64,000 bases of DNA from Candidatus Collierbacteria bacterium RIFOXYD2_FULL_45_13. GTDB lineage: Bacteria; Patescibacteriota; Microgenomatia; UBA1400; MFAQ01. The position numbers were made by a program, and so were the translations under genes. The stretch lies in contig MFAS01000001.1 in assembly GCA_001774685.1 (NCBI GenBank), forward strand, positions 705,485 to 769,484. The letters are read 5' to 3'. The stretch's first letter is position 1. Every line of letters begins with the position of its first letter. Under the pieces are notes generated by a model. That model searched no databases. It was given only the letters and a program-made list of their open reading frames with translations, and was not told where the DNA came from. Below are positions 35,221 to 35,462 of this stretch, in pieces.

Positions 35221-35232
35221 CAAAAATAGAAG

Positions 35233-35264
35233 AATCGTACCCTCGTGGTACGATTTTATATTTT
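35233..35264 (+). terminator. Rho-independent terminator after tRNA-Leu(CAG); also the 5' part of the tRNA-flanking element
   Basis: 9-bp stem aatcgtacc/ggtacgatt, loop ctcgt, then ttatatttt. Confidence 0.65.
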
Positions 35265-35341
35265 ACGGGGATTTGAACCTGACGGAGGTGCGACGGCACC
35301 GAGTCGCGGTCCGAGGAACTTCAGCAGAAGTTACCGAAGAC

Positions 35342-35365
35342 TTCAAATCCCCCCCTGCCCACAAA
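35342..35365 (+). repeat. 24-nt direct repeat of the tRNA-Leu(CAG) 3' end (att-like)
   Basis: ttcaaatccccccctgcccacaaa is identical to 35201-35224. Confidence 0.85.
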
Positions 35366-35462
35366 CACAGATGACCACCAGGTATAATATCCCGTAACAT
35401 TGACACCGCAAACAGGCTTTGGTAAAATCTCCGGTGAAAGTAAATTTACATTGGAGGATGAT

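Follow-up and report, generated by a model that had tools for sequence, protein, structure and literature searches.

A candidate miniature integrative cassette at tRNA and tmRNA genes of Collierbacteria-like bacteria, with a covarying three-way-junction fold

Introduction

Genes for tRNA and transfer-messenger RNA (tmRNA) are established integration sites, and direct repeats of their 3' ends are the attL/attR footprint of such events. Genomic islands, prophages and cis-mobilisable elements (CIMEs) insert into the 3' part of the gene, supply a replacement 3' end and leave a direct repeat that runs from the T-loop to past the gene; stacked insertions displace older partial 3' ends, and both empty and filled sites are found. 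Here we describe a family of cassettes which behave likewise, in a 64,000-nucleotide stretch of Candidatus Collierbacteria bacterium RIFOXYD2_FULL_45_13 (contig MFAS01000001.1, positions 705,485 to 769,484; hereafter the window, meaning the whole stretch) and in related genomes. An earlier sequence-only reading of the window had noticed the architecture behind four tRNA genes, and had proposed either a miniature non-autonomous integrative element or a conserved structured RNA trailer. Unlike islands and CIMEs, the cassette is gene-less, has a cargo about 100-fold smaller, and has no integrase in cis or nearby. One cassette family uses at least 10 tRNAs and tmRNA, its attachment sequence changed each time, and unlike known att regions the cassette has a target-complementary arm and a covarying three-way junction. 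Of the three features by which CIMEs are recognised, att-like repeats and the absence of recombination genes were found; the third, an autonomous relative able to mobilise the element, was not seen in the window, the loci, IMG/VR, or phage and plasmid collections. The cassette would be a variant among the tRNA-gene integrative elements, sharing their footprint and lacking the integrase that defines them.

Guide-to-cleavage-site pairing in IS200/IS605 elements, and the hairpin attachment sites of integrons (attC) and CTX phage, are analogies to the cassette and not memberships. IS200/IS605 and PATE elements resemble it in the hairpins folded from one strand, in an internal guide that pairs with target or cleavage sites, in strictly Watson-Crick stems, in a hairpin about 8-10 nt from the right end and in the existence of non-autonomous miniatures. 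However, IS200/IS605 elements make no target repeat and have a target of 4-5 nt, whereas the cassette matches 12-16 nt and has a flanking repeat of 10-33 nt; it also occurs in both orientations within the one replichore of the window. Neither TnpA nor TnpB was found among the open reading frames (ORFs) of the window, and no Rfam IS605-associated RNA motif was matched. In attC and in the CTX phage attP hairpin used by XerCD, the enzyme is encoded elsewhere, inverted segments of one strand pair and mimic a double-stranded target, structure is kept over stem sequence, and purine-purine mismatches stand at the inner helix end, as in the cassette. Unlike them, the cassette has no R/L boxes (GTTRRRY), is neither attached to gene cassettes nor located at dif, and its target is the tRNA T-arm; the terminal structure of attC is variable, whereas the three-way junction is strongly conserved. 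On inspection of 35 aligned copies, the T-loop GTTCRA did not fit GTTRRRY and the element always stood behind a tRNA or tmRNA.

A structured scaffold joined to short target-matching segments is also known from the IS110 bridge RNA, the omega RNA of TnpB/IscB and the homing CRISPR RNA of type V-K systems. These share with the cassette a 3' target-identical stretch that runs from the element into the flank, and the V-K system homes to a tRNA gene. In contrast, the cassette has no associated protein gene and no sequence or model similarity to them, its expression as RNA is putative, and its two target-matching segments complement each other instead of reading adjacent half-sites. Miniature inverted-repeat transposable elements have terminal inverted repeats and a 2-10 bp duplication, and the cassette has neither: its sole inverted pair is the arm and the flanking repeat, which lie inside and outside the right end, its left end is a terminator, and its repeat measures 10-33 nt.

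A constant architecture behind tRNA and tmRNA genes

Downstream of the host tRNA, the unit consisted of a terminator hairpin, a short AT spacer, an arm of 12-16 nt, a conserved core of ~75 nt and a second copy of the tRNA from T-loop to 3' end. The cassette measured roughly 140-200 bp, with a cargo of ~110-170 bp and no ORF or gene inside. We use S for the T-loop-to-3'-end segment of the tRNA or tmRNA gene, which is the repeated sequence and the presumed attachment site. Behind tRNA-Leu(CAG), the hairpin terminator and the exact 24-nt repeat of the tRNA 3' end that the sequence-only reading had reported were both present (Table 1); the repeat, TTCAAATCCCCCCCTGCCCACAAA, extends to 33 nt at 91% identity, and the terminator is now seen to be part of the inserted unit. 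The reported GC-rich core with a second hairpin is indeed a structured stretch, but its actual form is a three-way junction whose basal helix is made by arm and repeat. The arm had escaped notice: it is the reverse complement of the T-loop and the T-stem 3' strand of its own tRNA, always lies just 5' of the core, and pairs with the downstream repeat. Homologous architecture had also been claimed at tRNA-Arg(TCT), tRNA-Gly(TCC) and tRNA-His(GTG), and was found at each; the four window copies can be aligned with one another and scored 14.4-101.9 bits with R1, a covariance model built on 13 copies. Their shared motifs survived alignment of four copies and then of 13 and 35. R1 matched nothing else in the 64 kb. 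The low-scoring Gly copy is a diverged, Gly-specific subtype with relatives in two of the sampled loci (L031:5658-5762, 77.5 bits; L067:10442-10546, 33.4 bits), and is therefore real.

Altogether, the covariance model identified 35 copies in ~10 related Collierbacteria-like genomes. Their hosts were 10 tRNA species (His, Arg-TCT, Pro, Gly-TCC, Leu-CAG, Leu-TAG, Leu-TAA, Gln, Ser-GCT and Ser-GGA) and tmRNA, the tmRNA locus being supported by ARAGORN and by the adjacent smpB. In nearly every copy directly behind a tRNA, 40-57 nt separated the tRNA end from the model start, and this interval held the terminator hairpin (loop typically C-YTNGYG-G), a T-run and an AT-rich spacer of 8-20 nt. In the sampled loci, a cassette followed roughly one quarter to one third of tRNA genes. 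In the window it stood behind 4 of 11 tRNA genes (Leu-CAG, Arg-TCT, Gly-TCC and His) and was absent behind the other seven (Val, Leu-GAG, Gly-GCC, Phe, Gln, Leu-TAA and Pro); CCA was encoded by none of the 11 (ARAGORN, Rfam).

Orthologous loci that brought the total to 35 copies were found through NadE homologues of 48-89% identity; a neighbouring ORF of 109 amino acids had no homologues and was useless as an anchor. Among 185,579 species genomes, a pattern scan picked out 21 matches, 15 of which were chance occurrences in coding DNA and six real: four came from Collierbacteria metagenome-assembled genomes (MAGs) and the remaining two from other MAGs that are Patescibacteria-like, of which one is labelled Spirochaetia. 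A similar scan of Joint Genome Institute metagenomes gave five loci. With such a handful of real matches, the type-A core is rare outside the clade. Phage and plasmid collections held no similar sequence. The 13 matches of a loose IMG/VR scan were all chance in GC-rich coding DNA, a specific scan of the same collection gave 17 matches, none with the cassette architecture on inspection, and its sole lookalikes (L051 and L052) scored at most 11 bits with the model. The searchable literature yielded no description of the motif sequence or of a tRNA-linked miniature element. A survey of tRNA introns in Patescibacteria places group I introns at position 35/36, not in the T-loop (PMC13011429).

The Spirochaetia-labelled MAG (GCA_035477615.1; contigs L032 and L067) shares TypA-NadE synteny and the cassette family with Collierbacteria-like genomes, its NadE being 48% identical. 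Its taxonomic label, or the binning of these contigs, looks wrong.

The core is a covarying three-way junction

Single-sequence folds (the centroid for Leu, the minimum-energy fold for Arg) gave a three-way junction closed by arm and repeat. When 13 copies from several genomes were aligned (alignment A2), 89.8% of cells were paired as compared to 28-45% for slid partners, and compensatory changes were seen in 15 of 23 pairs. With all 35 copies aligned on the model (A6), these values were 92.7%, 26-45% and 21 of 23 pairs, and the covariation score was 0.68 as against 0.21 in shuffles, none of 500 shuffles scoring as high. The covariance analysis proposed by the sequence-only reading thereby returned strong covariation, and the core is a three-way junction. 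Helix P1 is the arm paired with the repeat, and it adjoins the junction precisely where tRNA identity starts. In P2, G-N-C pairs with G-N'-C and the middle pair varies among C-G, U-A, A-U and G-C. A tandem-GA internal loop, RGA against GA, separates P2 from P2', which is either a short hairpin (GCGC-GACG-GCGC) or, in aligned copies inspected, a longer form with a G[URA]C triloop and a conserved pyrimidine-pyrimidine mismatch. P3/P4 is a single long hairpin, GG-CA...UG-(A)-CC. The junction strands, RGGUCUUGA and GARAG, are conserved and purine-rich. An initial P3 pairing of GGUC with GACC was replaced by GG...(A)CC continuous with P4, which covaries (G-C to A-U or C-G).

No Rfam 15 family corresponded to the core: matches above the gathering threshold in the window were tRNAs only, none appeared at E<=10 around three copies, and permissive scans yielded terminator-like chance matches only. 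Models of the hammerhead, twister, twister-sister, pistol, hatchet, HDV-like and hairpin ribozymes likewise had no match at E<=10 in three copies.

Exact complementarity between the arm and its cognate tRNA ranged from 5 to 14 nt, with a mean of 9.0. The arm matched the tRNA over a longer stretch than it matched the cis repeat in 16 of 24 cases, and over a shorter one in none. The additional part is GAA(C), the complement of the T-loop (G)TTC, which usually has no partner in the cis repeat because GARAG occupies that place. The repeats (24, 19 and 20 nt, and others) extend from the T-loop to just beyond the tRNA, and they track the tRNA between species, as seen from CCCCGGGTCAC in both repeat copies of L065 and CCCCGAGTCAC in both of the window. 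Since the arm is complementary to the target and S is a copy of it, every cassette bears its target in antisense as well as in sense form. Most simply, and by analogy with known folded attachment sites, a folded single strand would present S at the base of the junction, within a helix; the arm could also pair with the S of an unoccupied gene.

Cassettes are gained, stacked and lost, and probably exchanged

Comparison of related genomes revealed an insertion footprint, namely empty and filled orthologous sites bounded exactly by the repeat. At tRNA-Pro the window site is empty, and the upstream region of the next gene follows directly. In UBA12020 the same site is filled by terminator, spacer, arm and core between two identical 20-nt repeats (GAGTCCTCTCACCCCGACAA), and the orthologous downstream sequence resumes past the second repeat copy. 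The empty site has no terminator of its own; this comparison shows that the terminator belongs to the inserted unit. Occupancy differed at other genes as well. Arg-TCT was filled in the window, UBA12020 and L065 and empty in L061, L062, L064, L066 and L067; Gln was filled in L064 and L066, and Leu-TAA in L064 and L065, both being empty in the window.

Repeated insertion has left stacks. Behind tRNA-Leu(TAA), L065 has a terminator of type B and an element directly after it, and L064 has a terminator of type A, an element, an old tRNA 3' end, a terminator of type B and an arm remnant. Three tandem units lie behind tRNA-Ser(GCT) in L034. The tmRNA, Ser(GGA) and window His loci contain successive partial 3' ends, and the final few bases of a core stand in front of each of them. 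Orthologues can also be mosaic. The Arg elements of the window and of UBA12020 are identical over 43 nt (P3/P4, junction and repeat) and entirely different in terminator, spacer and P2', and the window Arg terminator is nearly identical to the window His terminator; in L065, two elements have a common terminator and spacer and unlike cores. These mosaics point to exchange between copies inside a genome.

Several copies have come apart from their tRNA. An orphan (L031:3335-3427), which lies 1.3 kb away from the tRNA, has a His-type repeat, and after it come the His terminator and the beginning of a further arm. In L065 (1440-2061), an intact Gln-type element with a 21-nt tRNA-Gln 3' end is preceded by only a degraded T-arm-like stretch; no tRNA-Gln 5' half was found within 21 kb, and the preceding region is GC-rich and structured-looking, with no Rfam match. 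In L061 (10294-10518), the T-loop and acceptor of tRNA-His (TTCAAAT, GTCCTCCACCC) are unlike the arm and repeat of the element (TTCGAGT / TAATCCACCC type); it seems that the tRNA-His gene or allele has been exchanged and the element left untouched. Upstream of one element in L067, at 1255-1330, lies an unannotated tRNA-like stretch, CTGGGG...GGTTCGAGC...CCCCAGCTCCA, with no ARAGORN call, and the repeat of the element does not match this stretch.

Strand chemistry and the search for an enzyme

The core helices contain hardly any G-U pairs (3 of ~743 pairs, 0.4%, across the 35 copies of A6), as compared to 7.9% in 55 tRNAs and 5.8% in 31 terminator hairpins that directly precede the units' arms and cores, at the same loci. 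Strict Watson-Crick pairing is typical of single-stranded DNA hairpins, and the scarcity of G-U suggests such a DNA-like constraint. Features which favour RNA of tRNA-sense polarity are the purine-rich junction strands, the conserved loop sequences and the terminator that follows S when the unit is read as a circle. Given the G-U scarcity, the folded form may be RNA or single-stranded DNA. As for the structured RNA trailer of the sequence-only reading, the conserved, covarying structure with no Rfam match was borne out, and its RNA nature was called into question by the near absence of G-U. We also tried G-U and A-C counts as a means of fixing the transcribed strand. They were uninformative, being about equal among P1 mismatches (12 G-U, 16 A-C) and almost nil elsewhere. 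GC skew was negative in 29 of 32 2-kb bins of the window; cassettes in both orientations under near-uniform skew argue against an obligate lagging-strand mechanism.

None of the ~50 ORFs of the window encodes an integrase, transposase, HUH nuclease, reverse transcriptase or TnpB, and no recombinase appeared in the flanks of the L034 and L042 copies or in precomputed Pfam calls of L061-L067. No autonomous relative was found in the window, the loci, IMG/VR, or phage and plasmid collections. The integrase acting in trans which the sequence-only reading had envisaged was thus not seen in the 64 kb or in the flanks examined, and its miniature integrative element stands as regards insertion behaviour (empty and filled sites, stacking, remnants, variable occupancy) but not as regards integrase action.

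Proposed mechanism and rival explanations

The family is real, well populated and previously undescribed. On balance, we think it somewhat probable that its units are a miniature, non-autonomous integrative cassette targeting tRNA and tmRNA genes, whose three-way-junction fold includes a target-complementary arm. The inserted unit would comprise S, terminator, AT spacer, arm and core, and would target S in Collierbacteria-like bacteria of the candidate phyla radiation (CPR). Upon insertion, the S and terminator of the unit would complete the tRNA, and the original S would be pushed 3' of the core, giving the direct repeat. Read as a circle, the order arm, core, S, terminator, spacer would make a complete small module resembling a transcription unit, in which S would be at once the attachment site and the 3' portion of the product. 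The functional form may be a folded single strand of tRNA-sense polarity in which the arm pairs with S and closes the junction, so that the fold would present or recognise S for a recombination enzyme supplied in trans; pairing of the arm with S in an unoccupied tRNA gene could give each copy its tRNA specificity. Campbell-type recombination between the S of the module and that of the gene would reproduce the observed layout. Entry of a second module would produce stacking, entry into the displaced S would produce tandem arrays, and excision would restore the tRNA. A target-site-duplication model predicts the same linear order, but it leaves the left-end terminator unexplained, and neither model alone explains the arm.

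Several observations weigh against this proposal. A shift to a new tRNA needs a change in both arm and S, for which the proposal offers no route, and, as a substrate for recombination, a double-stranded DNA circle of 140-200 bp would be unusual in its small size. No recombinase candidate was identified in the window and flanks examined, and no excised form or circle was seen. A scan of the window copies found no canonical sigma-70 promoter between terminator and arm, where only -10-like AT hexamers, some with a preceding TG, were seen by eye; expression of the cassette is therefore putative. One copy (L034:3827-3927) is inverted inside a 30-nt repeat, which a strictly directional mechanism does not predict; at this locus (3722-3960) the inversion is relative to tRNA-Arg(CCG), the 30-nt direct repeat contains the whole T-arm, and there is no P1 partner. 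Across the His, Pro and Gly region (49.7-51.5 kb), every strain sampled from the species of the window has the same sequence, and hence there is no sign of present-day movement. Orthologous copies are kept across species of ~84% DNA identity with 43 nt of core and repeat unchanged, and such retention could reflect selection for a host function rather than selfish persistence.

That last point leads to the main rival of the integrative cassette, a host family of small-RNA genes, which we regard as possible though doubtful. Each copy would encode a tRNA-linked RNA of ~100-130 nt, made up of arm, three-way junction, copy of the tRNA 3' end and terminator, and acting on its cognate tRNA, or on a tRNA 3'-end enzyme, as a decoy, a regulator or a guide (similar to an external guide sequence of RNase P, or RNase Z-like); duplication would create the copies, and selection or gene conversion would preserve their match to the tRNA. 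Strong covariation with conserved purine-rich junction strands, orthologous copies kept at the same tRNAs between species, an arm and a repeat that both track the cognate tRNA, and an own terminator in the circularly read unit would all suit such a gene, as would copy 1, where the 24 tRNA-derived nt are identical and the adjoining trailer differs at 3 of 9 positions. However, occupancy differs widely among close relatives and several copies are decaying or truncated; the acceptor part of the repeat has been lost in many copies, including those at tmRNA, L066 His and L034 unit 2; the core is intact in L061 although its tRNA-His mismatches both arm and repeat; and the L065 element persists with its upstream tRNA-Gln gone. 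A G-U content of 0.4%, as compared to 6-8% in tRNAs and terminators, is atypical for a structurally selected RNA, and no clear promoter is present.

The purine-rich junction strands (GNC-RGA...GA-GNC, GGUCUUGAGG and GARAG), together with a substrate-like P1 that abuts the junction where tRNA identity begins, also recall a catalytic RNA. The core could then be a small self-cleaving or self-ligating ribozyme of a new class which processes the tRNA trailer or cuts and rejoins at the T-loop, and in the extreme case swaps tRNA 3' ends or inserts itself at the RNA level, to be copied into DNA later. Engineered trans-splicing ribozymes carry a guide arm 5' and a replacement exon 3', to which the arm and the 3' 'exon' of the cassette may be likened. 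We consider this improbable: known ribozyme models did not match, hammerhead core motifs were absent on inspection, G-U depletion disagrees with helices that act purely as RNA, and a terminator lies between tRNA and core. Nor did a reverse transcriptase appear in the vicinity, and Patescibacteria are reported to lack group II introns (PMC13011429). Eroded scars of integrase-carrying prophages or islands, with the shared sequence a leftover of attP-flanking DNA after internal deletions, would account for the attL/attR-like repeats, for the use of tmRNA and for the partial 3' ends piled up downstream. Yet neither the compact architecture nor its spacing varies among the 35 copies, heterogeneous deletion junctions are lacking, the internal helices covary, which is unexpected of neutral scars, and the loci, IMG/VR, and phage and plasmid collections contain no integrase fragment or larger relative. 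This origin appears to us highly improbable.

A bolder version of the integrative cassette, in which targeting is guided by nucleic acid or self-catalysed, strikes us as unlikely. A transcript or DNA strand would pair its arm (antisense) and S copy (sense) with both strands of the tRNA T-arm region, or else with the donor and target copies of S, and would either guide a host or unlinked recombinase or catalyse the joining itself. A nucleic-acid stretch of 12-16 nt, and not a protein, would then program the target, and retargeting would need arm changes only. Such a gene-less, programmable, tRNA-homing element would be a self-specifying mobile element and a new class beside the IS110 bridge RNAs and omega RNAs.

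If the integrative cassette is real, it would be the smallest known element homing to tRNA and tmRNA genes: at ~140 bp it has no gene, regenerates its target and supplies a terminator. One family would have spread over many tRNAs through change of a short target-complementary arm, which implies that base pairing, and not a dedicated integrase, recognises the target, and the question arises which enzyme moves cassettes in gene-poor CPR genomes of ~1 Mb. Should target choice prove to be nucleic-acid-guided, use as a programmable insertion system may be possible. Partial tRNA 3' ends in these genomes would not be integrase scars and should be annotated with caution. For a phylum in which non-coding elements have hardly been explored, the family moreover contributes a structured motif that is abundant and covaries strongly.

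Window copies and their genomic setting

The features of the four window copies are listed in Table 1. The arm target in copy 1 spans the T-stem G's, the T-loop and the T-stem 3' strand, and the initial 11 nt of the right repeat pair with the arm as P1. Its P2 (GAC/GUC) leads through the tandem-GA loop to a hairpin, GGUGC-GACG-GCACC, its P3/P4 hairpin is GG-AACUUC-AGCA-GAAGUU-A-CC, and GAAGAC forms a junction strand. Beyond the displaced Arg 3' end, the cassette now ends in a bidirectional terminator, which probably served tRNA and nadE originally. In copy 3 the repeat is divided into pieces of 10 nt and ~11 nt by a GC-rich palindrome, and in copy 4 it is interrupted by a 24-nt remnant.

Table 1. 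Positions of the cassette copies in the window and of their host tRNA genes.
Feature	Position	Strand	Evidence or remark
tRNA-Leu(CAG), host of copy 1	35140-35221	+	ARAGORN; Rfam tRNA 58.1 bits
Copy 1 left repeat, last 21 nt of tRNA-Leu(CAG) and 3 nt of trailer	35201-35224	+	repeat family D3
Copy 1 intrinsic-terminator-like hairpin and T-run, left part of inserted unit	35231-35257	+	11 pairs, loop CTCGT
Copy 1 arm GGGGATTTGAACC, exact 13-nt reverse complement of tRNA G52-C64	35267-35279	+	100% complementary (I4)
Copy 1 conserved core	35280-35341	+	fold z=-3.4; R1 match 35262-35364, 62.5 bits; covariation
Copy 1 right repeat, T-loop to discriminator and CAAA (displaced tRNA 3' end)	35342-35365	+	D3
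tRNA-Arg(TCT), host of copy 2, last gene of Leu(TAA)-Arg pair	43475-43549	-	ARAGORN, Rfam
Copy 2, whole	43336-43474	-	R1 85.6 bits; orthologue in UBA12020
Copy 2 terminator hairpin, then spacer and degenerate arm GGGCGAGCGAGG	43438-43476 (terminator)	-	
Copy 2 core	43336-43434 (model match)	-	
Copy 2 repeat GAGTCCGCCCCGAGTCACA	43337-43355	-	19 nt exact
Bidirectional terminator beyond displaced Arg 3' end	43309-43332	.	kept in UBA12020 orthologue
tRNA-Gly(TCC), host of copy 3	50186-50257	-	ARAGORN, Rfam
Copy 3, diverged Gly subtype, whole	49982-50185	-	R1 14.4 bits, E=0.089
Copy 3 weak terminator hairpin, plus two extra hairpins	50158-50173	-	
Copy 3 core	50013-50109 (model match)	-	
Copy 3 repeat CCGACTCCCC	50018-50027	-	
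Copy 3 GC-rich palindromic insert; eroded acceptor copy	~49996-50017; to ~49982	-	
tRNA-His, host of copy 4	50846-50919	+	ARAGORN, Rfam
Copy 4, whole	50920-51092	+	R1 101.9 bits
Copy 4 terminator hairpin, then spacer	50924-50948	+	
Copy 4 arm ATTACGGGACTCGA	50963-50976	+	exact 14-nt complement of tRNA-His
Copy 4 core	50962-51069 (model match)	+	
Copy 4 GAGTCCCG	51050-51057	+	
Copy 4 9-nt remnant of older element's end; older eroded His 3' copy	51058-51066; 51067-51092	+	

The palindrome, CCTACCGGCGGGCAGG / CCTGCCTGCCGGCAGGCAGG, lies within the displaced tRNA end, where it splits T-stem from acceptor. Its occurrences in the window (~49996-50017, minus strand), at L031:5755-5770 and at L021:1034-1053 belong to Gly elements from two species and to the UBA12020 Arg element, and the loci contain no other. 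Its motif GGCAGG resembles the acceptor stem of tRNA-Leu(CAG). A partial copy of the 5' end of tRNA-Leu(CAG) lies upstream of that gene on the plus strand (34993-35105; fold z=-2.7), where GGGCAGGTGGCGGAATG at 35033-35049, 94% identical to 35140-35156, is followed by a 41-nt insert with a hairpin and then by GTAGACGCAG, and a further GGGCAGG stands at 34993. With this 5' fragment and the 3' repeat, tRNA-Leu(CAG) is flanked by fragments of both of its own ends. No other tRNA in the window or loci had a 5' fragment, and a mirror family at tRNA 5' ends was dropped as a candidate because the fragment is confined to tRNA-Leu(CAG).

The window is bacterial chromosome, encoding TypA, NadE, UvrA/B/C, LexA, glycolytic enzymes and type IV pilus genes; this gene content and zero phage similarity ruled out phage origin. 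Identical sequence occurs in groundwater metagenome contigs and in assembly GCA_001774675.1 (contig MFAP01000001.1, 1.09 Mb), and the best NadE relatives are annotated Candidatus Collierbacteria (CPR/Patescibacteria). A 10-kb stretch of low G+C at 16001-26000 (0.35-0.39, versus ~0.44 elsewhere) encodes glycosyltransferases, methyltransferases and several NUDIX hydrolases, and may be an acquired cell-surface or sugar island.

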